Source: Biomphalaria pfeifferi (taxonomy: Eukaryota). Taken from it: DNA of 64,000 nt. A model generated the notes under the pieces. It was not told the origin of the DNA and made no database searches. It saw only the letters and a program-made list of their open reading frames with translations. The stretch is taken from NCBI GenBank assembly GCA_030265305.1, contig JASAOG010000079.1, positions 365,331 to 429,330 of the forward strand. Direction: 5' to 3'. Made by a program: the position numbers and the translations under genes. Shown here one piece after another: positions 5,398-61,170 of the stretch (position 1 is its first letter; the number at the start of each line of letters is the position of its first letter).

Positions 5398-5509
5398 TGG
5401 CAGGTTTTTGAATCAAAGTATGTGGCATTATTGGGTCTGTGTTGTCCTGTTTCGTTCACACATTTACAGGCGTCCCCCTGAACACACTGACCTTGATGAC
5501 AAAGACATG
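5398..5509 (-). CDS. mucin/VWF-like gene exon (Cys-rich module after the repeat domain)
   Basis: Strong acceptor ttttatttttacag and donor gtaagt, in phase with the PTS exon. Encodes (A)CLCHQGQCVQGDACKCVNETGQHRPNNATYFDSKTCQI. Confidence 0.65.
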
Positions 5510-5618
5510 CTGTAAAAATAAAACAATTGAACAAAGGTGGACAATTGAGCAAAGGTGGACAAGTGAATAAATGCAATTAGGGCATAACTGACTTTAAAGT
5601 AAAGATAAAAACACTGAC

Positions 5619-8270: not shown

Positions 8271-9087
8271 CTGCAGTTGATAAAATAATTTTGGACAAGC
8301 TTATGATGTGTTATTATTGCTTACCATCATGATAGTCATAGAAATACTAGGCCACATGTTGTGAATCATCCCAGTTTGTTTCCAAACGTTTTGATCACAT
8401 TGTATTCAACTAAGAAATTAACTTGGGGAATATATAAAATGGTTTCTATTTTTTAAACTGTGTTTCAAGTGTTCATTTAAATGACAGCAAATTTTTTTTG
8501 GTTAAATAATTCCTCTTATTAGCTGGCAAACTCTTCATGGGTGGGCGGACACGACTCTAACGATTTTCCCAGAAGTTTGACAGTTTATCTATATCTTAAA
8601 GGAAAAAAAAGAGGGTGGGGAATAGTTATTACAAGCAAACTAACCATTCTTACAAAAAGTCTTTAGCTTTATAAAAGGAGTAATAGCCTTTTTAAAGAAA
8701 TAATTTGTGACAAATTTTACTTGTTTTTATAGCACAACCACAATGAATCTGAATAGAAGAAATGTATTTAAAACTAAAGTGTTTTCTGAGTTAATTTTAC
8801 AATTCCTTTTATTTACATTACACAATTTTTTACTGTTTTCACCCGAGTCTTTCAAAAAAGAGACATGCTTTTTGTTCACAATCGGTCACATAAAATCTCA
8901 GTTGTTAATAAAATAGTCAGGTAAATTAATTATTTAATTATGATCATTAAAATTTATATGTCATAAATGAAAGTGTACATACTATATTTTGAGTATAAAA
9001 GGAATACTTTAATGTAACGTTCATGTAGTTGTGTAGGTGGGTCTCTGTATGCATATATACTTAATTCCTAAATATTTCTATAATTAC

Positions 9088-14394: not shown

Positions 14395-14760
14395 TTTCCT
14401 TGTCATGCTTTGTTTCCTGTTGTAATGTCATGCTTTGTTGCCTGTTCTAATGTCATACTTTGTTTCCTGTTCTAATGTCATGCTTTGTTTCCTGTTCTAA
14501 TGCCATGCTTTGTTTGCTGTTGTAATGCCATGCTTTGTTTCCTGTTCTAATGCCATGCTTTATTACCAGTTGTAATGTCATGCTTGGTTTCCTGTTGTAA
14601 TGTCATGCTTTGTTTTCTGTTCTAATGCCATGCTTTGTTTCCTGTTGTAATGTCATGCTTTGTTTCCTGTTCTAATGCCATGCTTTGTTTCCTGTTGTAA
14701 TGTCATGCTTTGTTTCCTGTTGTAATGTCATGCTTTGTTTCCTGTTCTAATGCCATGCTA
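14395..14760. repeat. 25-bp tandem repeat (tgtcatgctttgtttcctgttgtaa)n, ~14 copies
   Basis: Directly visible. Confidence 0.9.
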
Positions 14761-21175: not shown

Positions 21176-22445
21176 GATAAGAAATTTCCTTACATTGTCA
21201 TGTTAACCTAAACCTAACTAAAAAGTTCCTTACATCGTCATGTTGACCTAAACTTAACTAAAAGTTCCTTACATCGTCATGTTGACCTAAACATAACTAA
21301 AAAGTTCCTTACATCGTCATGTTGACCTAAACTTAATTAAAAAGTTCCTTACATCGTCATTTTGACCTAAACTTAACTAAAATTTCCTTACATCGTCATG
21401 TTGACCTAAACCTAACTAAAAAGTTCCTTACATCGTCATGTTGACTTAAACTTAACTAAAAGTTCCTTACATCGTCATGTTGACCTAAACCTAACTAAAA
21501 AGTTCATTACATCGTCATGTTGACCTAAACTTAACTAAAAAGTTCCTAACATCGTCATGTTGACCTAAACTTAACTAAAAAGTTCCTTACATCGTCATGT
21601 TGACCTAAACTTAACTAAAAAGTTCCTTACATCGTCATGTTGACCTAAGCTTAACTAAAAGTTCCTTACATACATCGTCATGTTGACCTAAACCTAACTA
21701 AAAAGTTCCTTACATCGTCATGTTGACCTAAACTTAACTAAAAAGTACCTTATATCGTCATGTTGACCTAACCTTAACTAAAAGTTCCTTACATCGTCAT
21801 GTTGACCTAAACCTTACTAAAAAGTTCCTTACATCGTCATGTTGACCTAAACTTAAATAAAAGTTCCTTACATCGTCATGTTGACCTAAACTTAACTAAA
21901 AGTTCCTTACATCGTCATGTTGACCTAAACCTAACTAAAAAGTTCATTACATCGTCATGTTGACCTAAACTTAACTAAAAAGTTCCTAACATCGTCATGT
22001 TGACCTAAACTTAACTAAAAAGTTCCTTACATCGTCATGTTGACCTAAACTTAACTAAAAAGTTCCTTACATACATCGTCATGTTGACCTAAACCTAACT
22101 AAAAAGTTCCTTACATCGTCATGTTGACCTAAACTTAACTAAAAAGTACCTTATATCGTCATGTTGACCTAACCTTAACTAAAAGTTCCTTACATCGTCA
22201 TGTTGACCTAAACCTTACTAAAAAGTTCCTTACATCGTCATGTTGACCTAAACTTAAATAAAAGTTTCTTACATCGTCATGTTGACCTAAACTTTAAAAA
22301 AAAATTCCTTACATCGTCATGTTGACCTAAACTTAAATAAAAGTTTCTTACATCGTCATGTTGACCTAAACCTTAAAAAAAATTCCTTACATCGTCATGT
22401 TGACCTAAACTTAACTAAGAAGATCCTTACATCGTCATGTTGACC
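21176..22445. repeat. 40-bp satellite (aagttccttacatcgtcatgttgacctaaacttaactaaa)n, ~31 copies
   Basis: Directly visible tandem array with point variants. Confidence 0.95.
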
Positions 22446-22574
22446 TACCATGAAAGTCAATTCTTTTTATTTTCCGCCACACGCTATTGTCACACTTCCT
22501 GAAAGACAAACAGAATGTACACATGGATGTCATATTCAAAGATCTCTAAACCTAGTCAATTGAACTGTAACTTA

Positions 22575-24574: not shown

Positions 24575-25752
24575 AAGTAAAGATAATAGTGAACAAATAG
24601 ATGCTATCTTACTAGATTTTTCTAAGGCTTTTGACAAAGTTCACCACCATAGTTGGCTTAAAAAATTAAAATATTTCGGCATTAATGGTCCACTGCATCA
24701 GTGGATTAAAGATTTTCTGATAGAGAGAGAACAAACTGTAATAATAAATGGCTCTAAATCAACACCAATAACAGTAAACTCAGGTGTACCTCAAGGAACA
24801 GTCTTGGGTCCACTACTATTTTTAATTTACATAAATGATTTACCAAATTGCATTAGTTCAGGAACAAAAGTCAGATTATTTGCAGACGATTGCATAATAT
24901 ATAGAACAATAAAAACAAAACAAGACACAGATACTTTACAAAGAGAATTAGATGAATTACAGAAATGGGAATCAAATTGGAGCATGTCTTTCCACCCAGA
25001 AAAATGTCAGTTGTTAAGAGTAACAAAAAAACTAAAACAAATTAATTCCACTTATCTTATTCATGGCAAACCAGTAACACAGACTAAAAACGCAAAATAC
25101 CTAGGTGTTATAATAAATGAAAAACTGTCATGGAATCCACATATTGATGAAACTATAAAAAAATCAAACAAAGCATTAGGATTTATTAAAAGAAATTTCT
25201 ATAAATCAAATAAGAACATAAAACTAAAATGTTATTTAACCTTGGCTAGGCCAATAATAGAATATGCATCCACCGTGTGGGACCCCTCAACTCAAGAAAA
25301 CATTAAGAAACTGGAACAAACACAAAATAGAGTAGTGAGATTCATAACAAACGAATATTCACATTTGACTAGGGTAACACCTATAGTAAAATCACTAAAT
25401 TTAGAAAGCCTTCAGGACAGAAGACTCAAAAGTAAAGTAGCAATTATACATAAAACACTGAACCATAATCTTCAAATACAAAAACAAAATTTAATAAAAT
25501 ACTCTGAAAGACACAAAAATAAAGGCACATTCCTCGTCCCATATGCTAGGACAAATTTGTACAAATACTCCTTCTTCCCTAGTGCTATTAGAGCATGGAA
25601 TGGGTTGCCTGAGCTAGCCAGAAAAACCAGTGACTTGGCAGAATTTAAGTCATTGGTTAATATGCATGACTAAATGCATGACGCGTAGGACGTAATCATC
25701 TTTTTCTTTTGAAGTAATGTCTGTATTATATAAGATAAGATAAGATAAATTG
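24575..25752 (+). mobile_element. LINE family Y, 5'-truncated copy with open RT C-terminal ORF
   Basis: ORF 24804-25673 (LDFSKAFDKV.., FADDCIIY, ..YSFFPSAIRAWNGLPE). Conserved 3' UTR and (TAAGA)n-like tail. Confidence 0.85.
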
Positions 25753-27639: not shown

Positions 27640-30316
27640 AGAACTTAGACTTAGAAATTTTATTAGAATGTGAGAAACCAGACATAATTGCAGGAAAAGA
27701 AACTTGGCTACATCCTGAAATTTATAATGCAGAAATTTTCAATAGTAATTATGAAATTTTTAGAAAAAATAGGGCTGATAATCATGGAGGAGTTCTTCTA
27801 GTAATAAAAAACACTCTTATAGCAGAAGAAATTACCTTACCTAACTCAAAAAATATAGAATCAACATTTTGTAAAATTAATACCACCTCAACATCCCTAA
27901 TAATAGGCAGCATTTACAGACCACCAAATTCTAGTTTAGAATATATGCAGGAACTATGTAATCAGATTACTACACTTAAAGAGACAAATACAAATGCAGT
28001 TTTTTGGATTATGGGTGATTTCAACCTACCTGATATAAATTGGAAAACACTAACCATAGATAAACACCAAAACCTTAAGGACATAAATGAACTTTTCATA
28101 GAAACTTAACACAACCTAAGTTTAGATCAAATCATTAAAAAGCCAACTAGATTAAACAACACATTAGATCTCTTCTTAACCAAAAGACCTGGATTAGTAG
28201 TTGATTATGATATTATCCCTGGTCTATCAGACCATGAGATCATAGAAATACACAGTCCCAATTCAAAACCCAAAAGAAAAATCTTACTCAGGAATAAATG
28301 TAACCTAACACAACTACACCAAGCTGCATTAAACTTTCAAGAAACATTCTTATTAGAAAAAGACATTAACCAACCAGTTGTTGACCTCTGGAATTTCATT
28401 AAAAACCATCTTAAAAGCATTATAGAAAATCATATACCAACTAAATACATATCAAACATAATAAATAAATGCTGGTTTAATAATAGACTAAAGAAGCTTT
28501 GTAAACAGAAGGAAAACCTATATAGAAAATTTAAAGAAACTAAGGCAGAAAGAGTTTACAAAAAGTATATAAAAATTAAACACTTAACCCAAAAAGTAAG
28601 CAGACAGCTGCAGAGTGAATACATAAACAATGTAATATCTAAAGATAACAACAAAAACCTATGGTCATACATTAAGTCTAAGAAAATGGAAACAACAGGC
28701 ATAGCGCCATTAAAAGATGAACATAACAGAGTACATAATGATAATGAAACTAAAGCAAACATTCTAAACAAATACTTTGCATCAGCATTCTCAGCCCCAG
28801 GAGACAAAGACATATTACTGAATTTGAACCAAGTAGACAACATGGAAGATATAGTAGTACAAGAAAATGGAATTCAAAAACTATTAGCCAACACCAAACC
28901 AAATAAAGCATCTGGACCTGATGGTATTCCAGCTAGATTACTCAAAGAACTAAGCAATGAGCTAGCGCCAGTGTTCAAAATACTCTTTCAGGCTTCACTT
29001 AACCAGGGCAGAGTACCAAAGGACTGGAAAGAAGCTAATGTCACATTTAAAAAAGGAGAAAGATCTGACCCAGGAAACTACAGACCAGTATCACTTACCA
29101 GCATCACATGTAAAATCCTAGAACACATAACATGTTGCAACATCATAAACCACTTAGACAAACAAAATGTCCTCACACCATACCAACATGGCTTTAGGAA
29201 ATATAGATCATGTGAAACACAACTAATAGGATTAATTGATGATTTTTCTAAAGGTTTTGATAATAGTGAACAAATAGATGCATCAGTGGATTAAAGATTT
29301 TCTGATAGGGAGAGAACAAACTGTAATAATAAATGGCTCTAAATCAACACCGATAACAGTAAACTCAGGTGTACCTAAAGGAACAGTCTTGGGTCCACTA
29401 CTATTTTTAATTTACATAAATGATTTACCAAATTGCATTAGTTCAGGAACAAAAGTCAGATTATTTGCAGACGATTGCATAATATATAGAACAATAAAAA
29501 CAAAACAAGACACAGATACTTTACAAAGAGAATTAGATGAATTACAGAAATGGGAATCTAATTGGAGCATGTCTTTCCACCCAGAAAAATGACAGTTGTT
29601 AAGAGTAACAAAAAAACTAAAACAAGTTAATTCCACTTAACTTATTCATGGCAAACCAGTAACACAGACTAAAAACGCAAAATACCTAGGTGTTATAATA
29701 AATGAAAAACTGTCATGGAATCCACATATTGATGAAACTATAAAAAAATCAAACAAAGTATTAGGTTTTATAAAAAGAAATTTCTATAAATCAAATATGA
29801 ACATAAAACTAAAATGTTATTTAACCATGGTTAGGCCAATAATAGAATATGCATCCACCGTGTGGGACCCCTCAACTCAAGAAAACATTAAGAAACTGGA
29901 ACAGACACAAAATAGAGCAGTGAGATTCATAACAAATGAATATTCACATTTGACTAGAGTAACACCTATAGTAAAATCACTAAATTTAGAAAGCCTTCAG
30001 GACAGAAGACTCAAAAGTAAAGTAGCAATTATACATAACACACTGAACCATAATCTTCAAATACAAAAACAAAATTTAATAAAATACTCTGAAAGACACA
30101 AAGATAAAGGCACATTCCTCGTCCCATGTGCTAGGACAAATTTGTAGAAATACTCCTTCTTCCCTAGTGCTATTAGAGCATTGAATGGGTTGCCTGAGCT
30201 AGCCAGGAAAACTAGTGACTTGGCAGAATTTAAGTCATTGGTTAATATGCATGACTAAATGCATGACGCTTAGGACGTAATCATCTTCTTTTTTGAAGTA
30301 ACGTCTTTATTATATA
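27640..30316 (+). mobile_element. APE-type non-LTR retrotransposon (LINE family Y), near full-length degenerate copy (EN + RT)
   Basis: EN motifs (GKETWL, NYEIFRKNR..GGVLLVIKN, IYRPPNS, GDFNLPDINW). RT motifs (DFSKGFD, FADD, VPKGTVLGPLLF). Stops and frameshifts present, plus a ~100-bp internal deletion near 29280 relative to the copy at 24575. 3' end conserved; tail ataagataagataag. Confidence 0.8.
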
Positions 30317-38129: not shown

Positions 38130-38495
38130 AATGACATTAACTGTGTATTCAAGCACTAAATTTGAATCGTATTATATTTGATCTGAAATTAGTGTGTATT
38201 CAAGCACTACATTTGAACTGATCATTAGCCTGTGCATTCAAGCACTGCATTTGAACTGATCATTAGCAGAGTATTCAAGCACTACATTTGAACTGATCAT
38301 TAGCAGAGTATTCAAGCACTACATTTGAACTGATCATTAGCAGAGTATTCAAGCACTACATTTGAGCTGATTATTAGCAGAGTATTCAAGCACTATATTT
38401 GAACTGATATTAGCAGTGTATTCAAGAACTACATTTGAGCTGATCATTAGCAGAGTATTCAAGCACTACATTTGAGCTGATCATTAGCAGAGTAT
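38130..38495. repeat. ~36-bp satellite (gtattcaagcactacatttgaactgatcattagcaga)n, left part of the array split by the LTR element
   Basis: ~10 tandem copies; the same satellite resumes at 45367. Confidence 0.9.
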
Positions 38496-39190
38496 TGTCA
38501 CGTATTACAAATTGAATTCTACTTTTAAATGGCTTGCCTAGGGGAACGTGACAATAGAAAAAGGTAGTTGTGTCACTTATCTTAAGTCTGAATTTAATCA
38601 GAGACTTACAATGAATAAAAAAAAAATATGACACAAGAAATCGGAAGGTAAAATATCAACTTAATGTTTAATCATAATATAACTCAATACAAAATGGAAG
38701 GGTTGACCAAAACCCTTTTACAAAAATGGCATGTAAAAATATTACAATACAATAGTTTGAAAATATAATTACAAATACAAGCAAGGCCTTGAAAAAAGAA
38801 AAATCTACACGATCAATTGGTATACCACGCACGGGTCACGCAATGTCTCCGCTATTCTGTCTCACGGCTGTCTCCGTATGTCTGTCCGTCAACGTAACGC
38901 GAGCGGTCTTTATATAATCTACCGCGCGTCGATATCGAGTAATTTCTAGAACAGAAAGTCATCAACACCCAGATCTAGAACGCTCTTCAAAGAGACAGAA
39001 GAAAAGAAAAAAAAAACCACCCTCCTTTCAACCAGAGGTACACAGATAGGTCAAGGACCGGTCACTGTCTGTGTGGCTTGACTCTTGAAGAATAAAATAA
39101 AAAAAAACTTATTACACAAAGGGGCAGACAACCTACAGGTCAAGAAAAAAAAACAATAGTATCTAGGCATTGTTACCTAGATACGTAACA
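38496..39190 (-). repeat. 3' LTR of the Gmr1-like element
   Basis: Direct repeat of 44673-45366; preceded on the element strand by the polypurine tract. Confidence 0.9.
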
Positions 39191-39206
39191 CCTCCCTCCT
39201 AAAAAT
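39191..39206 (-). promoter_or_regulatory. Polypurine tract (AGGAGGGAGG) immediately upstream of the 3' LTR
   Basis: Reverse complement of cctccctcctaaaaat abutting the LTR start TGTTACG. Confidence 0.7.
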
Positions 39207-39327: not shown

Positions 39328-42300
39328 TTACAATCTAGATAAGGCATCGGCGATAACATTTTCGCTGCCTTTTATGTGTTTAAGATCTAGGTTGTACTCT
39401 TGTAAAAATAAACTCCACCTGAGAAGTCGTTGATTCTTGCCAGACATTTTGTGGATAAATGTAAGGGGATTGTGGTCAGTAAATACAACCAGTGGCCATC
39501 TGGACCCACTGATATAAAGATCAAAGTGTTGTATAGAAAGAATCAACCCAAGACATTCTTTTTCCACAGTAGAATAATTTCTTTGATGTCTATTAAATTT
39601 CTTGGAAAAGAAACAAATAGGATGCTCTACTTGGAAATTATCTTCTTGGTAAAGGACTGACCCAACACCTGTGTCACTGGCGTCAATAGCTAACCTAAAA
39701 GGTTTTCCGAAATCAGGAGCCATCAAAATGGGGGAGCTAGATAATATCTGCTTAATTTGGTTAAAGGCTTTCTGACATTCATCCGTCCAAGTAAATCGGA
39801 CGTTCTTTCTCAGGAGGTTTGTTAAAGGACTGGCAATGACAGAAAAATTTTCGCAAAATTTTCTATAATATCCAGACATTCCCAAAAATCTTCGGAGTTG
39901 TTTCCGATCAGCAGGAATAGGGAAAGCTTGGATAGCTTCTACTTTGGCCATTACAGGTTTCACCTGGCCTTGTCCTACAATATGGCCTAAGTATTGGATG
40001 GAAGCCTGGCAAAAATCACTCTTACTCAGGTTTACAGTAATTTTTGCATGTAAAAGTTTAGTAAAAAGACAATGCAGTTGTTTACAATGGCTAGAAAAAT
40101 CTTGGCTAAAAATTACTACATCGTCTATGTATGCGTGGCAATTCTCCATGTCAGCAAGCAGGGCATTTATCATTCTCTGGAAAGTGGCAGGAGCATTCTT
40201 CATGCCAAATGGCATCACTTTGTATTGGTACAGACCATCAGGGGTGACAAAGGCGGAGATTTCCTTTGCCCTATCAGTCAGGGGAACCTGCCAATAACCT
40301 GAAAGTAGGTCTATTTTGGTGAAGTACTTAGCTTCACCAATACGATCTATGAGATCGTCTATCCTAGGGATAGGAAACGAATCGGTCTTTGTTACAGCAT
40401 TTACCTTACGGTAGTCTGTACAAAAACGATAAGTCTTGTCCTGTTTAGGTATCAAGACACATGGGGAGCTCCAGCTACTGGAACTTGGTTCAATGAGGTC
40501 ATTTTCAAGCATATACTTGATTTCTGACCTAAGTATGGCAAGTTTTTCAGGGTTGACCCTGTAAGGATGCTGCTTGACTGGAGTAGCCTCGCCAACATCT
40601 ACATCATGCATTATAACATTAGTCTGTTTTGGTACATCAGAAAAAATGTCATTAAATTCATTAATGAGTTTCATGATAACTGGCCTTTCTGTCGAAGACA
40701 GATGAGACAGTTTTACATCCAAATTCTGTAATACAAAAGAATTAGGTATTTTGTATTGTCCAAATTTCTCCTTTACAATATCATCATCAATAGGAGAAAC
40801 ATGGCTATTTGAACAACTTTTGACTGTATTTAAAACACAATTACTCTTCTCTGAGTGATCTGGCCGAGATACATAAGGCTTCAGCATGTTTATGTGACAT
40901 AGCTGAGTCTTTTTCCTACGGTCAGGAGTTTTGATTGTGTAATTGAGGTCACTAATTTTGGTCTCAATTTCATAGGGACCAAAATATCTGGCTTGCAAGG
41001 GTTGACCTGGTATGGGCAAAAATACAAGCACCTGATCCCCGGGAGAAAATTCTCTAACACGGGCCTTTCTATCATACCAGCGTTTCATGCTGGATTGGGT
41101 GTTTTGTAAGTTATTTTTGGCCAGAACACAAGCATCATAAAGTCTAGTTTTAAACTTACTTACATAGTCTAAAAGTCCTTCAGTGGCTGTTGGTGACAAC
41201 AAAGTCTCTTTTATACATTTCAAGGGACCGCGCACCGAATGGCCAAAGACTAAGTCAAAAGGGCTGAATCCCAACGATTCCTGGACGGATTCACGGGTTG
41301 CAAACAGCAGCATGTGGATTCCTTCGTCCCAGTCTTTTTCGTGCTCAAAGCAATAGGTTCGGATCATGTTCTTGAGAGTCTGATGGAATCGCTCAAGAGC
41401 GCCTTGCGACTCGGCATGATACGCACTCGACATGCAGTGTTTGATGCCCAACTGAGTCATGATTTGCTTGAAAAGATTGGCCGTGAAATTCGTTCCTTGG
41501 TCCGATTGGATGGACTTTGGTAGACCAAATAGAGTAAAGAACTTGATTAAGGCCTTTACAATGTTCGATGCTTTTATGTTCCTTAGAGGAATAGCCTCAG
41601 GAAAACGAGTTGAAGCACACATAATGGTCAACAGGTATTGGTTGCCAGCTTTTGTCCTTGGGAGAGGACCAACACAGTCAATAAGTACTCTGCTGAAAGG
41701 TTCTTCAAAGGCTGGAATCGGCTTCAGAGGAGCAACAGGGATCTTTTGATTTGGCTTGCCAACCATCTGACAGGCATGACAGGATCGGCAGTACTGGATG
41801 ACATCTTTCTTCAAACGTGGCCAGAAGAAGTGTGACATAATCTTGTGATATGTCTTGTGGATGCCGAGATGACCTGACATTGGTGTGTCATGAGCCAGAT
41901 TCATGATGTACGCTCGGTATCTTTCTGGTAACACGATTTGATGGCATATTCTCCATTCTTCTTCGTTGGATGCGTCTGGAGGTTTCCATTTCCTGAAGAG
42001 CATATCATCTTGGATGTAGTAGCACGTTGATGCTAGCTCTGCCTCTTGTGATGTCATTGCGGTTTCTCGGAGTTTGGCGAGCTCTGGATCCTTCTTTTGG
42101 TCCTCAATCAACTGTTTTCGAGTTGATGCCGGCTTTTCAGAATTTGGCGTTGGTTCTTCTTCAAGAGAAGCAAAGAATGTGGTGCTCAAGTCCACATCAT
42201 CGTGGTTACTGTTGGCCTTGATGACGTTCTCTTCTTGAGATGCTTTCAACCTCATTGCCCTTGTTACTGCACACGCTGGATATAACTCTAGGTCTTCCTC

Positions 42301-44406
42301 GGGTGTGGCAGATAAGTCGGGTTTTTGAGTGACGATGGGTTCGGCTATCACCTTTCCACCTGCTAAGTCATTGCCTAACAGCAACGAGATGCCTTCCAAT
42401 GGTAATGTTGGTCGGACACCTACAACAACCGGTCCAGTAATGAGATTTGACTTTATGTCGATTAGATGTAGAGGCACATCTATACATCCAAGCTCTACGC
42501 CTCGTAACAGGATGCTCTTCCCAGTCGATGATGATTTTGACAAGGGCAAGATACCCTCTAAAAGTAGCGATTGTGAGGCACCTGTGTCTCTCAAAATGGT
42601 GATAGGTCGTAGACTTGTAGAATCACCGGGTAGTGATACGAATCCTTCCGAAATGAAAGGCTTAAAATCCTCTAATAAAACATCAATTTTGGTTGATGCA
42701 GACTGGACTTGGGTCGAACTCTCGCTGGAGTCATTGACATCTCTAGGAGACGCAGTGGAGAAACTCTTTCTTGAGTCAGTAGAACATCTTTTGGATGTAT
42801 TTGGAGAACTCTTGATGGAGTCATTGGAACATCGGGGTGATGTTTTATGGGAACTCTTGATAGAGTCATGGGAACATCGGGGTGATGTATTATGGGAACT
42901 CTGGATAGAGTCATTGGAACATCGGGGTGATGTATTATGGGAACTCTGGATAGAGTCATTGGAACATCGGGGTGATGTATTATGGGAACTCTGGATAGAG
43001 TCATTGGAACATCGGCTTGATGTATTATGGGAACTCTGGATAGAGTCATTGGAACATCGCTGTGATGTACTAGGTAAACTCTTGTTTGAGTCATTGGAAC
43101 ATCGGCTTGATGTCTTTGAAAAACTCTTGATTGAGTCAATGGAACATCGTAAAGATGAATTTGAAAAACTCTTGTTTGAGTCATTGGAACATCGGCTTGA
43201 TGTATTTGAAAAACTCTTGTTTGAGTCATTGGAACATCGTGGAGACATTTTCGGAGAGTCTTGTACAGTCAATACATTTGAAACAGGTGGTGTCGAGGTA
43301 TTCTTGATATGACTTGATGATGAGGGAGTAAACCTCGCCGACCACTGTACTGTGCAAGCGCTGACTTTTGAAGGAGCTTTTTCGTTTCTCTTCCTCAATT
43401 TCCAGCAATCGTCAATTTTATGGCCTTCTCGTTTGCAGTAGGAACAAGTAGCTTTACTTGTAGTAGGTTTTCTGTCGTTTGTACTGCTGTTCTTGATGGA
43501 GTTGCTAGCAGTGGACTCAGGCTGTTTGACTTGTTTTGGCTTGACATCCGTCGTATACTTGGCAAATTGTTGTGATATTATATAATCGTCTGCCAACACT
43601 GCAGCCTTGTGCACATCTTCCTCGCCACGATCAGCTATATGCGTACGGACGTCCAGCCGCACACAACTCTTGAACTCTTCCATCAGCATTAGGTTCTTGA
43701 ATTTGGCAAAGTCGGTGCCGATTTCCTTGGAAGTGAGCCATTTTTCAAAGCGTCGCTCCTTTTCCCGCAGGAATTCTACATGGGTTTGGCCATCCGATTT
43801 GCGACAATCCCTGAACTGCTTTCGGTAAGCTTCCGGAACAAGTTCATATGCCTTAAGAATTAAGGCCTTAACAACATTATAATCTTTTTGTTGTTCAATG
43901 GTCAAAGAACAAAATACCTCTGCAGCTCTACCAGTCAAAACTGTTTGCAGCAAAGTGGGCCACAAAGTTTCAGGTACATTAAAATTTTTCACAGCAAGTT
44001 CAAATTGTGGAAAATAATTGTCAATTGTGGCTTCATTAAAGCGTGGAATTATTTTCAAAAATTTTGTTGCTTCAGCAGTATGACTGGCAGGGGAAGAATC
44101 TGGTCTTACATTAGCAGCTAACTCTAATTTTCTTAACTCTATTTGTAATTTCATTTCCTTCTCTTTTAAAGCTAACTGGGCTTCTATTTCCATTTGTTTT
44201 AATTTTATCTGAAGTTCTAAATCTGATTTACCCTCATCAGGTCTAAGGGTTTCTAAAAGGTCTTCAGAAAACACTTCCTCGTCTACATAATGGATTACAA
44301 TGTTATCTCTGATTTCTTGTTTAAGGGCATTTGATTTTATTTTTAACCCTAAATGTTTAGAAATAAGGACCAGTTCCTTCCTAGTACAAGCATCAAGCTC
44401 TTCCAC
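39328..44406 (-). CDS. gag-pol polyprotein of the LTR retrotransposon
   Basis: In order: gag CCHC knuckle CSYCKREGHKIDDC; Ser-rich repeats; protease LRDTGASQS; integrase HHCC (HLGIHKTYH...CRSCHACQ), DDE core (LIDCVGPLP, SDQGTNF) and GPY/F (ARYFGPYEI); RT (FGMKNAPATFQRMIN, YIDDVVIFS); RNase H (DASDTGVGSV, TDHNPL, ADALSRL). Integrase lies upstream of RT. Confidence 0.9.
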   Translation of the reverse strand: MEELDACTRKELVLISKHLGLKIKSNALKQEIRDNIVIHYVDEEVFSEDLLETLRPDEGKSDLELQIKLKQMEIEAQLALKEKEMKLQIELRKLELAANVRPDSSPASHTAEATKFLKIIPRFNEATIDNYFPQFELAVKNFNVPETLWPTLLQTVLTGRAAEVFCSLTIEQQKDYNVVKALILKAYELVPEAYRKQFRDCRKSDGQTHVEFLREKERRFEKWLTSKEIGTDFAKFKNLMLMEEFKSCVRLDVRTHIADRGEEDVHKAAVLADDYIISQQFAKYTTDVKPKQVKQPESTASNSIKNSSTNDRKPTTSKATCSYCKREGHKIDDCWKLRKRNEKAPSKVSACTVQWSARFTPSSSSHIKNTSTPPVSNVLTVQDSPKMSPRCSNDSNKSFSNTSSRCSNDSNKSFSNSSLRCSIDSIKSFSKTSSRCSNDSNKSLPSTSQRCSNDSIQSSHNTSSRCSNDSIQSSHNTSPRCSNDSIQSSHNTSPRCSNDSIQSSHNTSPRCSHDSIKSSHKTSPRCSNDSIKSSPNTSKRCSTDSRKSFSTASPRDVNDSSESSTQVQSASTKIDVLLEDFKPFISEGFVSLPGDSTSLRPITILRDTGASQSLLLEGILPLSKSSSTGKSILLRGVELGCIDVPLHLIDIKSNLITGPVVVGVRPTLPLEGISLLLGNDLAGGKVIAEPIVTQKPDLSATPEEDLELYPACAVTRAMRLKASQEENVIKANSNHDDVDLSTTFFASLEEEPTPNSEKPASTRKQLIEDQKKDPELAKLRETAMTSQEAELASTCYYIQDDMLFRKWKPPDASNEEEWRICHQIVLPERYRAYIMNLAHDTPMSGHLGIHKTYHKIMSHFFWPRLKKDVIQYCRSCHACQMVGKPNQKIPVAPLKPIPAFEEPFSRVLIDCVGPLPRTKAGNQYLLTIMCASTRFPEAIPLRNIKASNIVKALIKFFTLFGLPKSIQSDQGTNFTANLFKQIMTQLGIKHCMSSAYHAESQGALERFHQTLKNMIRTYCFEHEKDWDEGIHMLLFATRESVQESLGFSPFDLVFGHSVRGPLKCIKETLLSPTATEGLLDYVSKFKTRLYDACVLAKNNLQNTQSSMKRWYDRKARVREFSPGDQVLVFLPIPGQPLQARYFGPYEIETKISDLNYTIKTPDRRKKTQLCHINMLKPYVSRPDHSEKSNCVLNTVKSCSNSHVSPIDDDIVKEKFGQYKIPNSFVLQNLDVKLSHLSSTERPVIMKLINEFNDIFSDVPKQTNVIMHDVDVGEATPVKQHPYRVNPEKLAILRSEIKYMLENDLIEPSSSSWSSPCVLIPKQDKTYRFCTDYRKVNAVTKTDSFPIPRIDDLIDRIGEAKYFTKIDLLSGYWQVPLTDRAKEISAFVTPDGLYQYKVMPFGMKNAPATFQRMINALLADMENCHAYIDDVVIFSQDFSSHCKQLHCLFTKLLHAKITVNLSKSDFCQASIQYLGHIVGQGQVKPVMAKVEAIQAFPIPADRKQLRRFLGMSGYYRKFCENFSVIASPLTNLLRKNVRFTWTDECQKAFNQIKQILSSSPILMAPDFGKPFRLAIDASDTGVGSVLYQEDNFQVEHPICFFSKKFNRHQRNYSTVEKECLGLILSIQHFDLYISGSRWPLVVFTDHNPLTFIHKMSGKNQRLLRWSLFLQEYNLDLKHIKGSENVIADALSRL
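42780..43270 (-). repeat. 48-bp in-frame tandem repeats (~11 copies) inside the gag-pol ORF
   Basis: Encodes SSRCSNDSNKSFSNT-like 16-aa units between the NC zinc knuckle and protease. The plus-strand ORF 42329-43312 is its antisense shadow. Confidence 0.85.
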
Positions 44407-44645
44407 AGAGGGATTTGCAAGAAAAACCTGAATATCTATGACTAACTAACAACTATTACAAGCAAAAAAATGTATACAATGTAAATATACAGTACAAAAT
44501 CAGTACAACAAAAAAACCTTAAGAGAGTTTGGTCAATACTATTGATACTTTACTTCCGACTCTTTGACACAAAAAAAATTTTTGTTAAAGTCAACTTCGC
44601 CTTTACAAAATTACTCAAGTAAGACGAAAATAGGTTCAGAAAAAT

Positions 44646-44663
44646 ATCCCGGACGAGCCCCCA
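44646..44663 (-). promoter_or_regulatory. Primer binding site complementary to the 3' end of tRNA-Pro (TGGGGGCTCGTCCGGGAT)
   Basis: On the element strand, 9 nt downstream of the 5' LTR end, the 18-mer TGGGGGCTCGTCCGGGAT is complementary to ...ATCCCGGACGAGCCCCCA, the canonical tRNA-Pro 3' end. The identical PBS is used by murine leukaemia virus. Confidence 0.75.
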
Positions 44664-44672
44664 AACTTCTTT

Positions 44673-45366
44673 TGTCACGTATTACAAATTGAATTCTACT
44701 TTTAAATGGCTTGCCTAGGGGAACGTGACAATAGAAAAAGGTAGTTGTGTCACTTATCTTAAGTCTGAATTTAATCAGAGACTTACAATGAATAAAAAAA
44801 AATATGACACAAGAAATCGGAAGGTAAAATATCAACTTAATGTTTAATCATAATATAACTCAATACAAAATGGAAGGGTTGACCAAAACCCTTTTACAAA
44901 AATGGCATGTAAAAATATTACAATACAATAGTTTGAAAATATAATTACAAATACAAGCAAGGCCTTGAAAAAAGAAAAATCTACACGATCAATTGGTATA
45001 CCACGCACGGGTCACGCAATGTCTCCGCTATTCTGTCTCACGGCTGTCTCCGTATGTCTGTCCGTCAACGTAACGCGAGCGGTCTTTATATAATCTACCG
45101 CGCGTCGATATCGAGTAATTTCTAGAACAGAAAGTCATCAACACCCAGATCTAGAACGCTCTTCAAAGAGACAGAAGAAAAGAAAAAAAAAACCACCCTC
45201 CTTTCAACCAGAGGTACACAGATAGGTCAAGGACCGGTCACTGTCTGTGTGGCTTGACTCTTGAAGAATAAAATAAAAAAAAACTTATTACACAAAGGGG
45301 CAGACAACCTACAGGTCAAGAAAAAAAAACAATAGTATCTAGGCATTGTTACCTAGATACGTAACA
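44673..45366 (-). repeat. 5' LTR of the Gmr1-like element
   Basis: Direct repeat of 38496-39190; TG..CA ends; followed on the element strand by the PBS. Confidence 0.9.
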
Positions 45367-45665
45367 GTATTCAAGCACTAGATTTGAACTGATATTAGCA
45401 GTGTATTCAAGCACTACATTGGAACTGATATTAGCGGTGTATTCAAGCACTACATTTGAACTGAATTAGCGGTGTATTCAAGCACTACATTTGAACTGAT
45501 ATTAGCGGTGTATTCAAGCACTACATTTGAGCTGATCATTAGCAGTGTATTCAAGCACTACATTTGAGCTGATATTAGCAGTGTGTTCAAGCACTACATT
45601 TGAGCTGATATTATCAGTGTATTCTAGCACTACATTTGAACTGATATTAGTGGTGTATTCAAGCA
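45367..45665. repeat. Same ~36-bp satellite, right part
   Basis: Array continues exactly where the left part stopped once the element and one GTAT copy are removed. Confidence 0.9.
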
Positions 45666-46072
45666 CTACACATGAATCCCACTTTCAGTGCGTCTTATAC
45701 GAACAGCAGATGAAAAAAACAACAACGTATAACATTTACTTAATTGTTCCAATAGTATACTCATTATTATGCTTAGTTATTTCACTTCGTGTTTTAGGTT
45801 GATCGTACGAAGTCTTGGGTTTAAAACTTTTAGGAAGTAATTCTACATTTTAATGGTATGACACAAATGGAAACATTTAGAATGAATAAGAGTTAGGTGT
45901 GTCATATAAAGGGGACGTTTTTTTTTAAATAATAGCAAAATGCGCCTGGTAAAATAGCTGGATAGAATTATATATTTTAAAACACACTAAAAACAACTAC
46001 AAAGATAAAAACAACTAACAAAAACAATGTAACAATTGAAATACACATAAAAAGAGAGAAATCAAAAGAAAC

Positions 46073-52789: not shown

Positions 52790-53060
52790 TAACTTACTTG
52801 TAAATAACACACTTACTTATAAGTAACACACGATCAAACTACACACTTACTTGCAAATAACACACTTACATGTAAATAACACATGATCAAACTACACACT
52901 TACTTGTAAATAACACATGATCAAACTACACACTTACTTGCAAATAAAACAAGATCAAACTACACACCTCCTTGTAAATAATACACAATCAAATAACACA
53001 CTTACTTGTAAATAACACACTTACTTGTAAATAACACACTTACTTGTAAATGACACACTC
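52790..53060. repeat. Imperfect tandem repeat (acttacttgtaaataacacatgatcaaactacacac)n
   Basis: Directly visible, ~6-7 units. Confidence 0.8.
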
Positions 53061-53587: not shown

Positions 53588-56500
53588 AATGGCTTCTTTG
53601 TATAGTCACTAATAGGCTTCTTTGTATAGTCACTATAATGGCTTCTTTGTATAGTCACTATAATGGCTTCTTTGTAAAGTCACTATAATGGCTTCTTTGT
53701 ATAGTCACTATAATGGCTTCTTTGTATAGTCACTATAATGGCTTCTTTGTATAGTCACTATAATGGCTTCTTTGTAAAGTCACTATAATGGCTTCTTTGT
53801 ATAGTCACTATAATGGCTTCTTTGTAAAGTCACTATAATGGCTTCTTTGTAAAGTCACTATAATGGCTTCTTTGTATAGTCACTATAATGGCTTCTTTGT
53901 AAAGTCACTATAATGGCTTCTTTGTAAAGTCACTATAATGGCTTCTTTGTATAGTCACTATAATGGCTTCTTTGTAAAGTCACTATAATGGCTTCTTTGT
54001 AAAGTCACTATAATGGCTTCTTTGTATAGTCACTATAATGGCTTCTTTGTATAGTCACTATAATGGCTTCTTTGTATAGTCACTATAATGGCTTCTTTGT
54101 AAAGTCACTATAATGGCTTCTTTGTAAAGTCACTATAATGGCTTCTTTGTATAGTCACTATAATGGCTTCTTTGTAAAGTCACTATAATGGCTTCTTTGT
54201 AAAGTCACTATAATGGCTTCTTTGTATAGTCACTATAATGGCTTCTTTGTAAAGTCACTATAATGGCTTCTTTGTATAGTCACTATAATGGCTTCTTTGT
54301 ATAGTCACTATAATGGCTTCTTTGTATAGTCACTATAATGGCTTCTTTGTAAAGTCACTATAATGGCTTCTTTGTATAGTCACTATAATGGCTTCTTTGT
54401 AAAGTCACTATAATGGCTTCTTTGTATAGTCACTATAATGGCTTCTTTGTATAGTCACTATAATGGCTTCTTTGTAAAGTCACTATAATGGCTTCTTTGT
54501 AAAGTCACTATAATGGCTTCTTTGTATAGTCACTATAATGGCTTCTTTGTAAAGTCACTATAGTGGCTTCTTTGTATAGTTACTATAATGGCTTCTTTGT
54601 AAAGTCATAATAATGGCTTCTTTGTAAAGTCACTATAATGGCTTCTTTGTATAGTCACTATAATGGCTTCTTTGTATAGTCACTATATATAGTCACTATA
54701 ATGGCTTCTTTGTATAGTCACTATAATGGCTTCTTTGTATAGTCACTATAATGGCTTCTTTGTATAGTCACTTTAATGGCTTCTTTGTATAGTCACTATA
54801 ATGGCTTCTTTGTATAGTCACTATAATGGCTTCTTTGTATAGTCACTATAATGGCTTCTTTGTATAGTCACTATTGTGGCTTCTTTGTATAGTCACTATA
54901 ATAGCTTCTTTTTGTAGTCACTATAATAGCTTGTATAGTCACTATAATGGCTTCTTTGTATAGTCACTATAATGGCTTCTTTGTAAAGTCACTATAATGG
55001 CTTCTTTGTATAGTCACTATAATGGCTTCTTTGTATAGTCACTATAATGGCTTCTTTGTATAGTCACTATAATGGCTTCTTTGTATAGTCACTATAATGG
55101 CTTCTTTGTATAGTCACTATAATGGCTTGTATAGTCACTATAATGGCTTCTTTGTATAGTCACTATTGTGGCTTCTTTGTAAAGTCACTAAATGGCTTCT
55201 TTGTATAGTCACTATAATGGCTTGTATAGTCACTATAATGGCTTCTTTGTATAGTCACTATAATAGCTTCTTTGTATAGTCACTATAATGGCTTGTATAG
55301 TCACTATAATGGCTTCTTTGTATAGTCACTATAATAGCTTCTTTGTATAGTCACTATAATGGCTTGTATAGTCACTATAATGGCTTCTTTGTATAGTCAC
55401 TATAATGGCTTCTTTGTATAGTCACTATAATGGCTTCTTTGTATAGTCACTATAATGGCTTCTTTGTATAGTCACTATAATGGCTTCTTTGTAAAGTCAC
55501 TATAATGGCTTCTTTGTAAAGTCACTATAATGGCTTCTTTGTATAGTCACTATAATGGCTTCTTTGTATAGTCACTATAATGGCTTCTTTGTATAGTCAC
55601 TAAATGGCTTCTTTGTATAGTCACTATAATGGCTTCTTTGTATAGTCACTATAATGGCTTCTTTGTAAAGTCACTATAATGGCTTCTTTGTAAAGTCACT
55701 ATAATGGCTTCTTTGTATAGTCACTTTAATGGCTTCTTTGTATAGTCACTATAATGGCTTCTTTGTATAGTCACTATAATGGCTTCTTTGTATAGTCACT
55801 ATAATGGCTTCTTTGTATAGTCACTATAATGGCTTCTTTGTATAGTCACTATAATGGCTTCTTTGTATAGTCACTATAATGGCTTCTTTGTATAGTCACT
55901 ATAATGGCTTCTTTGTATAGTCACTATAATGTCTTCTTTGTATAGTCACTATAATGGCTTCTTTGTATAGTCACTATAATGGCTTCTTTGTATAGTCACT
56001 ATAATGGCTTCTTTGTATAGTCACTATATATAGTCACTATAATGGCTTCTTTGTATAGTCACTATAATGGCTTCTTTGTATAGTCACTATAATGGCTTCT
56101 TTGTATAGTCACTATAATGGCTTCTTTGTATAGTCACTATAATGGCTTCTTTGTATAGTCACTATAATGGCTTCTTTGTATAGTCACTATAATGGCTTCT
56201 TTGTATAGTCACTATAATGGCTTCTTTGTATAGTCACTATAATGGCTTCTTTGTATAGTCACTATAATGGCTTCTTTGTATAGTCACTATATATAGTCAC
56301 TATAATGGCTTCTTTGTATAGTCACTATAATGGCTTCTTTGTATAGTCACTATAATGGCTTCTTTGTATAGTCACTATAATGGCTTCTTTGTATAGTCAC
56401 TATAATGGCTTCTTTGTATAGTCACTATAATGGCTTCTTTGTATAGTCACTTTAATGGCTTCTTTGTATAGTCACTATAATGGCTTCTTTGTATAGTCAC

Positions 56501-57662
56501 TATAATGGCTTCTTTGTATAGTCACTATAATGGCTTCTTTGTATAGTCACTATTGTGGCTTCTTTGTATAGTCACTATAATAGCTTCTTTTTGTAGTCAC
56601 TATAATAGCTTGTATAGTCACTATAATGGCTTCTTTGTATAGTCACTATAATGGCTTCTTTGTAAAGTCACTATAATGGCTTCTTTGTATAGTCACTATA
56701 ATGGCTTCTTTGTATAGTCACTATAATGGCTTCTTTGTATAGTCACTATAATGGCTTCTTTGTATAGTCACTATAATGGCTTCTTTGTATAGTCACTATA
56801 ATGGCTTGTATAGTCACTATAATGGCTTCTTTGTATAGTCACTATTGTGGCTTCTTTGTATAGTCACTAAATGGCTTCTTTGTATAGTCACTATAATGGC
56901 TTGTATAGTCACTATAATGGCTTCTTTGTATAGTCACTATAATAGCTTCTTTGTATAGTCACTATAATGGCTTGTATAGTCACTATAATGGCTTCTTTGT
57001 ATAGTCACTATAATAGCTTCTTTGTATAGTCACTATAATGGCTTGTATAGTCACTATAATGGCTTCTTTGTATAGTCACTATAAAGGCTTCTTTGTATAG
57101 TCACTATAATAGCTTCTTTTTATAGTCACTATAATTGCTTCTTTGTATAGTCACTATTGTGGCTTCTTTGTATAGTCACTATAATGGCTTGTATAGTCAC
57201 TATAATGGCTTCTTTGTATAGTCACTATAATAGCTTCTTTGTATAGTCACTATAATGGCTTGTATAGTCACTATAATGGCTTCTTTGTATAGTCACTATA
57301 ATAGCTTCTTTGTATAGTCACTATAATGGCTTGTATAGTCACTATAATGGCTTCTTTGTATAGTCACTATAAAGGCTTCTTTGTATAGTCACTATAATAG
57401 CTTCTTTTTATAGTCACTATAATTGCTTCTTTGTATAGTCACTATTGTGGCTTCTTTGTATAGTCACTTAATGGCTTGTATAGTCACTATAATGGCTTCT
57501 TTGTAAAGTCACTATAATGGCTTCTTTGTAAAGTCACTATAATGGCTTCTTTGTATAGTCACTATAATTGCTTCTTTGTATAGTCACTATTGTGGCTTCT
57601 TTGTATAGTCACTTAATGGCTTGTATAGTCACTATAATGGCTTCTTTGTATAGTCACTATAA
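53588..57662. repeat. 25-bp satellite (ggcttctttgtatagtcactataat)n, ~160 copies, with variant units and higher-order blocks
   Basis: Directly visible. Variants include gtaaagt vs gtatagt, 18-bp short units (ggcttgtatagtcac), and cactattgtgg / cactatatatag units that recur in the same order in two ~1-kb blocks. Confidence 0.95.
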
Positions 57663-57769
57663 TGGTATCGGCTTAGGAACAACTCATTGCGATTTTCTAT
57701 CGACTCTAAAGAGATGCAGGCTAGGTCGTAGCAATCTTTCAAATGAATGATTTATTTAGCGTCTCTTTT

Positions 57770-60793: not shown

Positions 60794-60819
60794 ACTTCCC
60801 CCACGCCTTGTTATCATAC

Positions 60820-61170
60820 AATGGTGTCAGTGACATACAATGGTGTCAAGTGACATACAATGGTGTCAGCGACATACAATGGTGTCAGCGACATACAATG
60901 GTGTCAGTGACATACAATGGTGTCAGTGACATACAATGGTGTCAGTGACATACAATTGTGTCAGTGACATACAATGGTGTCAGTGACATACAATTGTGTC
61001 AGTGACATACAATGGTGTCAGTGACATACAATGGTACAATGGTGTCAGTGACATACAATGGTATCAGCGACATACATTGATGTCAACGACATGCATTGAT
61101 GTCAGTGACATACAATGATGTCAGTGACATACAATGATGTCAGCGATATACAATGGTGTCAGGAAACATT
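60820..61170. repeat. 21-bp tandem repeat (tgtcagtgacatacaatggtg)n, ~16 copies
   Basis: Directly visible, immediately right of the foldback-like element. Confidence 0.9.

Follow-up and report, generated by a model that had tools for sequence, protein, structure and literature searches.

Can the only open reading frame of an LTR retrotransposon carry a long serine-rich tandem repeat between its nucleocapsid and protease domains, and is such an insert a functional part of the polyprotein or a passenger? This question is raised by a minus-strand gag-pol ORF located in the 64-kb stretch of DNA analyzed here (hereafter the window; GC content about 35%). A preliminary description made from the sequence had interpreted the locus as an otherwise intact Gmr1-like element with an in-frame array that is tolerated or functional.

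Structure of the Host Element

The gag-pol ORF occupies positions 39328–44406 of the minus strand (1692 codons as listed, starting from GTG) and encodes domains in the order PR-IN-RT-RH, as a single ORF with no gag/pol frameshift. Pfam searches revealed a SCAN-like capsid domain (PF02023; aa 191–277, E = 1.5e-8, 34.7 bits versus a cut-off of 27), Integrase_H2C2 (aa 827–882), rve (aa 902–997), RVT_1 (aa 1319–1477) and RT_RNaseH (aa 1565–1671). All catalytic motifs were found in the polyprotein, namely CCHC, DTGA, HHCC, DDE, YIDD and the RNase H residues.

The ORF is enclosed by a 5′ LTR of 694 bp with TG...CA ends (44673–45366, minus strand) and a 3′ LTR of 695 bp (38496–39190, minus strand). 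The two LTRs show no substitutions in 694 bp, and their sole difference is one T in a T-run. The primer-binding site TGGGGGCTCGTCCGGGAT (44646–44663, minus strand), located 9 nt downstream of the LTR, is an exact string match to the tRNA-Pro primer-binding site given in the literature on murine leukemia viruses; no tRNA genes that could confirm the primer were found in the 64-kb window. A polypurine tract, AGGAGGGAGG (39191–39200, minus strand), adjoins the 3′ LTR, and the element is flanked by the target-site duplication ATAC on the 5′ side (45367–45370, minus strand) and on the 3′ side (38492–38495, minus strand). Together, the paired LTRs with TG..CA ends, the duplication, the tRNA-Pro primer-binding site and the polypurine tract are hallmarks of genuine integration, which occurred in a host satellite with a period of 36–37 bp.

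[quoted passage not shown] Judging by the IN-before-RT order, which was checked in the query element alone, and by the SCAN-like C-terminus of the capsid, both typical of the clade, and by the corresponding architecture of the best database relatives (46–67% identical), the element can be assigned to the Gmr1-like Ty3/gypsy group, in agreement with the preliminary description. All 120 best matches listed contained rve and RT, and nearly all of them contained SCAN. The best match in the full-polyprotein search was P0001, with 67% identity over pol, and the nearest relatives came from a freshwater metagenome, Mytilus and Saccostrea, origins that, taken with the GC content, might hint at a bivalve host. 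Other features common to the clade include the single gag-pol ORF, the CCHC knuckle, the D(T/S)G protease, and LTRs with a target-site duplication, primer-binding site and polypurine tract.

In contrast to P0001, which has an ATG initiator, this copy reads ATA at the aligned codon (44437–44439, minus strand), and the next in-frame ATG downstream, with none earlier, is codon 72 (44193–44191). The canonical start codon has apparently been lost. Despite its uninterrupted ORF of 1692 codons, the copy therefore does not have the start codon of an intact autonomous element, and the earlier view of it as otherwise intact is not entirely accurate.

Organization of the Tandem Array

The array lies inside the gag-pol ORF and has a period of 45 bp, or 15 codons. 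Tandem Repeats Finder (TRF) reported 9.9 copies of period 45 at 42794–43239, with 89% matches, 0% indels and a score of 555, and the periodicity of the translated array is far beyond chance (z = 33.9 relative to shuffles). Read in register, it comprises 12 units of 45 bp (15 aa) at 42709–43248 on the minus strand (gag-pol aa 387–566), 11 of them good and one, at the 3′ end, degenerate. It should be mentioned that further eroded unit-like sequence may reach approximately position 43300. The array described earlier as about 11 copies of a 48-bp unit at 42780–43270 is thus real, but its extent and copy number differ and its period is shorter; the 15-aa units quoted in that description already imply 45 bp.

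As had been proposed, the array is located between the CCHC zinc knuckle of the nucleocapsid (CSYCKREGHKIDDC, aa 321–334; 43405–43446, minus strand) and the protease active-site motif DTGA (aa 607–610; 42577–42588, minus strand), within an NC-PR spacer of 272 aa (aa 335–606; 42589–43404, minus strand). The consensus unit, TSPRCSNDSIKSSPN, is serine-rich, and Ser makes up 36% of the array residues. The units are translated as SSRCSNDSNKSFSNT and SPRCSNDSIQSSHNT types without a stop codon or an indel. Neighboring units differ, in order, by 6, 8, 12, 10, 3, 2, 0, 3, 6, 15 and 21 nt; the identical pair is units 7 and 8, and the most degenerate units are those at the edges. The divergence, up to 21 of 45 nt, is due to point substitutions alone, as noted previously. 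With head-to-tail units, a unit length divisible by three, a position within an ORF and 0% indels, the array has the features of a coding minisatellite.

The earlier observation that the array is open in the gag-pol frame is correct. However, three of the six frames are open, and the probability of finding no stop codon given the observed substitutions (at least 44 events) is 0.01–0.12, so that the absence of stops is weak evidence when taken alone.

An ORF of 327 aa with EHRGDVLWELWIESL-type units (42329–43312, plus strand) runs antisense through the array. It has no protein-family match, only antisense ORFs of about 100 aa are present in the same region of the P0001 contig, and the pN/pS in its frame is 0.74. 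It is the repeat unit that holds this frame open, and we reject the ORF as a real gene and consider it a by-product, as the preliminary description did in calling it spurious.

Spacer Length and Distribution of the Array in Related Elements

Comparison with 104 relatives revealed a median NC-PR spacer length of about 72 aa and a range of 43–173 aa, so that the 272-aa spacer exceeds even the maximum and was rightly regarded as unusual. Small independent in-frame duplications occur in the same place in P0101 (2 × 14 aa), P0026 and P0042. Across the clade, spacer length appears to be barely constrained. The array is an extreme instance of an ordinary mechanism and is unusually large for the Gmr1-like group.

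The presence of the repeat in related Gmr1-like elements had been suggested as a check. In about 200 relatives we found no array, and no unit homologue was matched among 5.8 billion proteins. When the spacer alone was used as the query, matches were restricted to its PR-proximal flank. A regular expression for the unit core gave one match only, the single-copy site in P0001, and the 17-nt unit core gave single chance matches at 41 loci in metagenome contigs and two loci in viral contigs, never an array. TRF detected no array in the P0001 and P0002 contigs. Within the 64-kb window, BLAST with the element as query revealed no further copies of it, the only matches being to itself, to the LTRs and to satellites.

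Predicted Structure of the Spacer

The AlphaFold2 model has pLDDT <50 and no secondary structure at aa 345–571, low values that are partly expected over the array, where the alignment has no depth. The SCAN-like domain is modeled as helical (pLDDT about 90), and the knuckle and the protease have values >90. In the Uversky charge-hydropathy plot, the mean hydropathy of the array (0.355) is below the boundary value (0.431), on the disordered side. Disorder prediction had been proposed as a check, and both approaches point to an unstructured region; the spacer with its array is thus predicted to be an intrinsically disordered linker.

Selection on the Array Peptide

If the array were a selected module of Gag-Pol, it might serve as a phospho-acceptor, as a docking scaffold for host factors, or as a spacer affecting PR dimerization or the timing of NC-PR cleavage, by analogy with p6/p6* of HIV-1. 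Its position is the same as that of retroviral p6/transframe regions, where PTAP-type duplications occur (PMC5259826), and it has passed through retrotransposition. Of the six frames, the translated one has the lowest pN/pS between units (0.6, versus 0.74–1.36 in the five others), neither indels nor stops have appeared across the at least 44 substitution events, and the R-C-S-x-D-S core is nearly invariant. These features would fit some constraint in addition to that of keeping the frame. The array also holds 12 RxS and seven S/T-P motifs, although such counts are consensus matches within a sequence that is more than one-third serine.

Several observations speak against this reading: (i) the variable columns are distributed 9/9/9 across codon positions, and conservation of the core at synonymous sites too points to recent duplication rather than to selection on the peptide; (ii) the late-domain motifs P(T/S)AP, PPxY and YPxL were found nowhere in the polyprotein; (iii) neither the array nor its unit recurs in the relatives and protein collections searched; and (iv) maintenance of the frame is expected of any insert in the only ORF of an active element. 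Judged from these comparisons, evidence of selection on the array peptide is weak, and we regard a selected module as rather unlikely. Accommodation of the insert, one half of the earlier proposal, is borne out by an array that predates insertion (see below); for the other half, a selected function, we found no positive evidence, and the pN/pS values, the column distribution and the lack of a unit homologue do not favor the phospho-acceptor role given as an example.

A stronger version, which we consider improbable, would make the array an adaptive innovation, a multivalent, Ser/Cys-rich disordered scaffold of 180 residues with the number of units under selection. Its role could be to bring in a kinase or host factor, or to hold back protease activation in an element whose Gag and Pol are produced as a single polyprotein.

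Origin and Age of the Array

P0001 carries a single-copy motif, RSSHDSDKSL-RDVKKS, where units 11–12 of the array read RCSTDSRKSF...RDVNDS, directly upstream of the conserved DVLLEDFKPFISEG. Since this seed motif is present in single copy at the homologous position, the alignment indicates that the array arose in situ from a motif of the spacer. Its center is homogeneous and its edges are eroded, as expected of an array produced by slippage or unequal exchange.

The LTRs allow the array to be dated relative to the insertion. The absence of substitutions in 694 bp limits post-insertion divergence to less than about 0.43% per site (95% bound), and units formed after insertion would be expected to differ pairwise by <0.2 nt. 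Since the LTRs are identical in this respect while units are up to 21 of 45 nt apart, almost the whole array must predate the insertion and have passed through reverse transcription. Only the identical pair of units 7 and 8 could postdate it.

This age bears directly on the possibility that the array is private to this copy, the result of post-integration slippage in a minisatellite-prone genome, and hence uninformative about the biology of the element. The window is indeed rich in minisatellites and satellites (more than a dozen arrays), units 5–9 are only 0–3 nt from their neighbors, and the array is known from this single copy. Yet most units are 3–21 nt apart, a divergence that duplication by itself could not have produced, and the greater part of the array must therefore be older than the insertion; moreover, P0001 has single-copy sequence that is orthologous to the edge units. 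Post-integration slippage is therefore very unlikely as the source of the array.

A second 45-bp, 15-aa array, coding-like and mucin-like, is located at 5872–7888 of the window; capture from it is ruled out by the lack of sequence similarity. Capture of some other host sequence, such as a repeat-containing exon, or an assembly artefact, to which tandem repeats are prone, is hardly credible given that BLAST revealed no similarity beyond the element and its LTR/satellite flanks, that the seed motif is at the homologous spot in P0001, and that 89% matches leave enough divergence for unambiguous assembly over 540 bp.

Thus, the array is probably a lineage-specific coding minisatellite that was amplified in situ before insertion and has been tolerated as a neutral or nearly neutral passenger. 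The course of events, in which the amplification mechanism and the neutrality are inferred, would be as follows. A short Ser-rich motif of the NC-PR spacer would have been amplified to 12 tandem units of 15 codons, likely by slippage, unequal exchange, or template switching of reverse transcriptase between direct repeats. Because the unit length is divisible by three and no indels arose later, Gag-Pol has remained in frame. The spacer would be an unstructured tether with barely constrained length, and for this reason the extra approximately 180 residues could be tolerated. The RNA of the parent element already carried the array, which completed one or more rounds of packaging, reverse transcription and integration to yield this very young copy. 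Most likely, it acts solely as a flexible, hydrophilic linker. We also infer that the array-bearing polyprotein itself, rather than a helper copy, supported transposition; a copy lacking the canonical ATG cannot by itself demonstrate the function of that polyprotein.

Comparison with Other Mobile Elements

Within the Gmr1-like group, the 12-unit array distinguishes this element from all relatives sampled. Outside it, in-frame duplications in HIV-1 Gag p6/p6* (PMC5259826) are similar in that they affect an unstructured NC-PR region and are carried by replicating genomes. Those of p6 involve one or a few short late-domain copies with a known budding role, whereas the array has 12 copies of a 15-aa unit, no late-domain motif and no known partner, and the present element, unlike HIV-1, has no gag/pol frameshift. 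In the length polymorphism region (LPR) of mouse LINE-1 ORF1, a retrotransposon ORF also contains in-frame tandem repeats (66 and 42 bp), the number of which varies between active families (PMC3600994). There, one to three units alter the length of a structured coiled coil, while here 12 units form a predicted disordered spacer in an LTR element. The LINE-1 case is a precedent for retrotransposition of elements that carry a coding minisatellite.

The internal arrays of plant Ogre/Retand elements appear to be non-coding and located between pol and the 3′ LTR, in contrast to the present array, which is translated within gag-pol. Internal minisatellite arrays of these plant LTR retrotransposons are described as being spread by transposition (PMC7004042, PMC11963269, PMC3305785).

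The array shows that an LTR retrotransposon with a single ORF can accommodate, between NC and PR, an unstructured spacer about four times as long as is typical of its clade and still pass through a retrotransposition cycle. It also provides a dated case of a coding minisatellite that grew from a single-copy seed inside a mobile element. Should the array-bearing copies turn out to be the active lineage in the source genome, they would be a natural system for studying the effects of spacer length on Gag-Pol processing; otherwise, the array is an annotation caveat. It also yields a spurious minus-strand ORF of 185 aa and inflates the gag-pol ORF.

Structure and relatives of the host element

The array lies in a minus-strand gag-pol ORF of 1692 codons (39328..44406), to whose product the residue numbers refer. 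Pfam places SCAN at aa 191-277, Integrase_H2C2 at aa 827-882, rve at aa 902-997, RVT_1 at aa 1319-1477 and RT_RNaseH at aa 1565-1671, so that the integrase precedes RT. Such an order is the peculiarity that defines the Gmr1 clade within Ty3/gypsy (PMC6238403), the other hallmark being a SCAN-like capsid domain (PMC8321522). The whole polyprotein had 607 matches among the 5.8 billion proteins searched; the best of them, P0001, comes from a freshwater metagenome contig (67% identity), and the named ones include scallop, sponge, sea urchin and many fishes. Integrase and RT domains were present in all of the best 120 of the 607 matches and SCAN in nearly all.

The LTRs (5', 45366..44673; 3', 39190..38496; both minus strand, with TG...CA ends) show no substitutions in 694 bp and differ solely by one T in a T-run. 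The polypurine tract AGGAGGGAGG (minus strand) adjoins the 3' LTR. The PBS TGGGGGCTCGTCCGGGAT (44663..44646, minus strand) is identical at 18/18 positions to the tRNA-Pro PBS of murine leukemia viruses; it does not immediately adjoin the LTR end but lies 9 nt further downstream. Both flanks consist of one 36-37-bp satellite (38173-38495 and 45367-45685, about 8 monomers per side). The element is inserted within a monomer, which contains the ATAC target-site duplication (direct repeats at 45370..45367 and 38495..38492, minus strand), and the satellite is back in register after the element.

The N-terminus of P0001 is MDIQHFKENPSLEEL, while the window element reads in frame (stop)LV-I-DIQVFLANPSVEEL. 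Its ATA at 44439..44437 (minus strand) aligns with the ATG of P0001, and no in-frame ATG follows until codon 72 (44193..44191). The copy is otherwise coding-complete but probably impaired in translating full-length Gag-Pol. The carrier is best read as a Gmr1-like element that is very young and that, in this copy, has a mutated start codon.

It should be mentioned that the coiled-coil-like N-terminal regions of many Gmr1-like Gag proteins (relatives P0003, P0087, P0177 and others) contain short E/R/K-rich tandem repeats with periods of 7-15 aa. They occur at 377-547 in the P0001 contig, L044, and only as a short version in the window element (aa 60-95).

Anatomy of the array

The array is real. 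Tandem Repeats Finder (TRF) revealed a single one in the region (42794-43239; 9.9 copies, 89% matches, 0% indels, score 555) with a period of 45 bp, not the 48 bp of the preliminary description, whose own 15-aa units already implied 45. In the gag-pol frame it forms 12 consecutive 15-residue units (aa 387-566; 43248..42709), 36% of whose residues are Ser. As originally placed, it lies between the CCHC knuckle CSYCKREGHKIDDC (aa 321-334) and the DTGA protease motif (aa 607-610), and the periodicity of this spacer is far above that of residue shuffles (z = 33.9). Units 1, 2 and 4 follow the pattern (M/T)S(P/S)RCSNDSNKSFSN and units 5-8 the pattern TS(Q/S/P)RCSNDSIQSSHN, to which unit 9 (TSPRCSHDSIKSSHK) is near; units 3, 10 and 11 are intermediate and unit 12 (ASPRDVNDSSESSTQ) is degenerate. 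The centre of the array is homogeneous and its edges are eroded.

The reported lack of stop codons holds for the entire carrying ORF. As evidence it is weak: three of the six frames through the array are open, since repeating a stop-free unit without indels introduces no stop. The chance of zero stops arising is 0.12-0.01 for 44-86 substitution events.

The same property explains the length of two further ORFs, which we regard as by-products of the stop-free unit. One is a minus-strand ORF of 185 aa in the other open frame (42672..43229). The second, on the plus strand (42329..43312, 327 aa), was rightly called spurious: it has no Pfam family match, and in the corresponding region of the P0001 contig there are antisense ORFs of only about 100 aa and no conserved counterpart. 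It carries repeats of the EHRGDVLWELWIESL type over the array and extends beyond it, antisense to the protease region, for about 380 nt. These repeats are 15 aa long, Leu/Glu/Trp-rich, and contain RGD in six units.

Origin and age of the array

When aa 281-640 alone were searched, the matches, many from Mytilus and Saccostrea, spanned just 11-31% of the query; judging by BLASTP coverage and the P0001 alignments, we take them to reflect the conserved PR-proximal flank. No array was found in related Gmr1-like elements: the unit core R[CS]SxDS was absent from 198 retrieved relatives except for one occurrence in P0001. TRF detected no spacer array in the contigs of P0001 and of another relative, P0002, and the 17-nt unit core matched metagenome and viral contigs only at isolated sites, by chance. 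The single P0001 occurrence is at the place homologous to the array, BLASTP pairing RCSTDSRKSF..RDVNDS..DVLLEDFKPFISEG (units 11-12 and flank) with RSSHDSDKSL-RDVKKS..DVLLEDFKPFISEG. Given this homologous motif and the array-free relatives, the array expanded in place from a Ser-rich motif already resident there, after the split from the P0001 lineage; with the seed motif at the homologous site, capture of a foreign sequence was rejected.

The homogeneous centre and eroded edges are the pattern expected from slippage or unequal exchange. Retroviral RT switches template between direct repeats, and such switching would be an equally plausible engine of amplification.

The LTR pair limits post-insertion divergence to at most about 0.43% per site (95% Poisson bound), and therefore two 45-bp units duplicated after insertion should differ by <0.2 nt. 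Adjacent units along the array differ by 6, 8, 12, 10, 3, 2, 0, 3, 6, 15 and 21 nt, and every unit except the identical pair 7/8 differs from its nearest relative within the array by at least 2 nt. Since neither duplication nor homogenisation can create divergence, the array already existed, in essentially its entirety, in the parental RNA before insertion; it then underwent reverse transcription and integration, with a normal target-site duplication. The unit divergence, set against substitution-free LTRs, thus answers, as far as one copy allows, the earlier concern about a copy-specific slippage artefact. Transposition may have been driven by the array-bearing polyprotein itself or by trans-complementation.

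Tolerance and selection

The knuckle-to-DTGA distance is 272 aa in the window element, against 43-173 aa (median about 72) in the 104 relatives that have both motifs. Small in-frame duplications arose independently in the spacers of three relatives: VSEQVI..VKPENF in two copies (P0101), a 10-aa unit in about three (P0026) and KGxKVxP in three (P0042). The NC-PR junction has thus changed in length repeatedly within the clade, and the window element is the extreme case. AlphaFold2 (aa 181-760, 51-sequence alignment) gave pLDDT 90-95 for the SCAN-like helices, knuckle and protease, and pLDDT <50 without secondary structure for aa 345-571, the alignment being empty over the array. The charge-hydropathy plot also classes the array as disordered. 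Of the two readings offered in the preliminary description, 'tolerated' agrees with the length-plastic spacer, the passage through retrotransposition and the predicted disorder.

The other reading, a functional insert such as a phospho-acceptor region, fares worse, and we consider it unlikely that the array is a functional module of Gag-Pol. Summed Nei-Gojobori pN/pS between units is lowest in the true frame (about 0.6 versus 0.74-1.36 in the other five), but this value comes from non-independent pairs of 45-nt units. The three codon positions share the variable columns equally (9/9/9). Synonymous positions are conserved as well in the invariant core CGATGTTCCAATGACTC, which points to recent common descent and not to peptide constraint. 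No late-domain motifs were found in the polyprotein, and the RxS, S/T-P and NxS/T counts of the array are those expected from a 36%-Ser repeat. Maintenance of the frame is selected because the element has a single ORF; a sequence-specific function of the peptide is only weakly suggested.

The array is best read as a coding minisatellite, specific to this lineage and tolerated, that lies in a disordered spacer of plastic length and has passed through retrotransposition: an extreme instance of an ordinary mechanism. Tandem arrays inside LTR retrotransposons are well documented in plants, where they are reported to sit in non-coding regions (PMC7004042, PMC11963269), whereas the window array is translated in gag-pol. 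Precedents for in-frame repeats in the coding regions of retroelements are the length polymorphism region of mouse L1 ORF1, with 66/42-bp repeats whose number varies among active families (PMC3600994), and HIV-1 p6, where PTAP and other duplications lie exactly between NC and PR (PMC5259826). Two features are unusual, namely the size of the array (12 units and 180 aa, which expand the spacer fourfold) and its setting in a Gmr1-like element; a limited literature search found no published description of a comparable array in this clade.

Other repeats and elements in the window

The density of tandem repeats in the window is unusually high. A minus-strand ORF of 944 codons (5464-8298) is an almost unbroken series of 45-bp/15-aa repeats, with TTTEEELTTTAKTIE present in about 46 copies and VSEEVTETFAPEITT in about 8. 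Its product is mucin-like, rich in Thr and Glu, and has no Pfam match; the other strand is likewise open (803 aa). The ORF may be an exon of a host repeat protein or only a minisatellite. A 4-kb satellite (53588-57665) contains about 165 copies of the 25-bp unit AATGGCTTCTTTGTATAGTCACTAT with 89-93% matches. Minisatellites were found at 21182-22447 (40 bp x 32), 14401-14759 (25 bp x 14), 60815-61162 (19 bp x 18) and 52792-53059 (19/34/53 bp). Two plus-strand ORF fragments with partial RVT_1 matches (24804-25673 and 28686-29294) are relics of further retroelements that are not related to the Gmr1-like copy.
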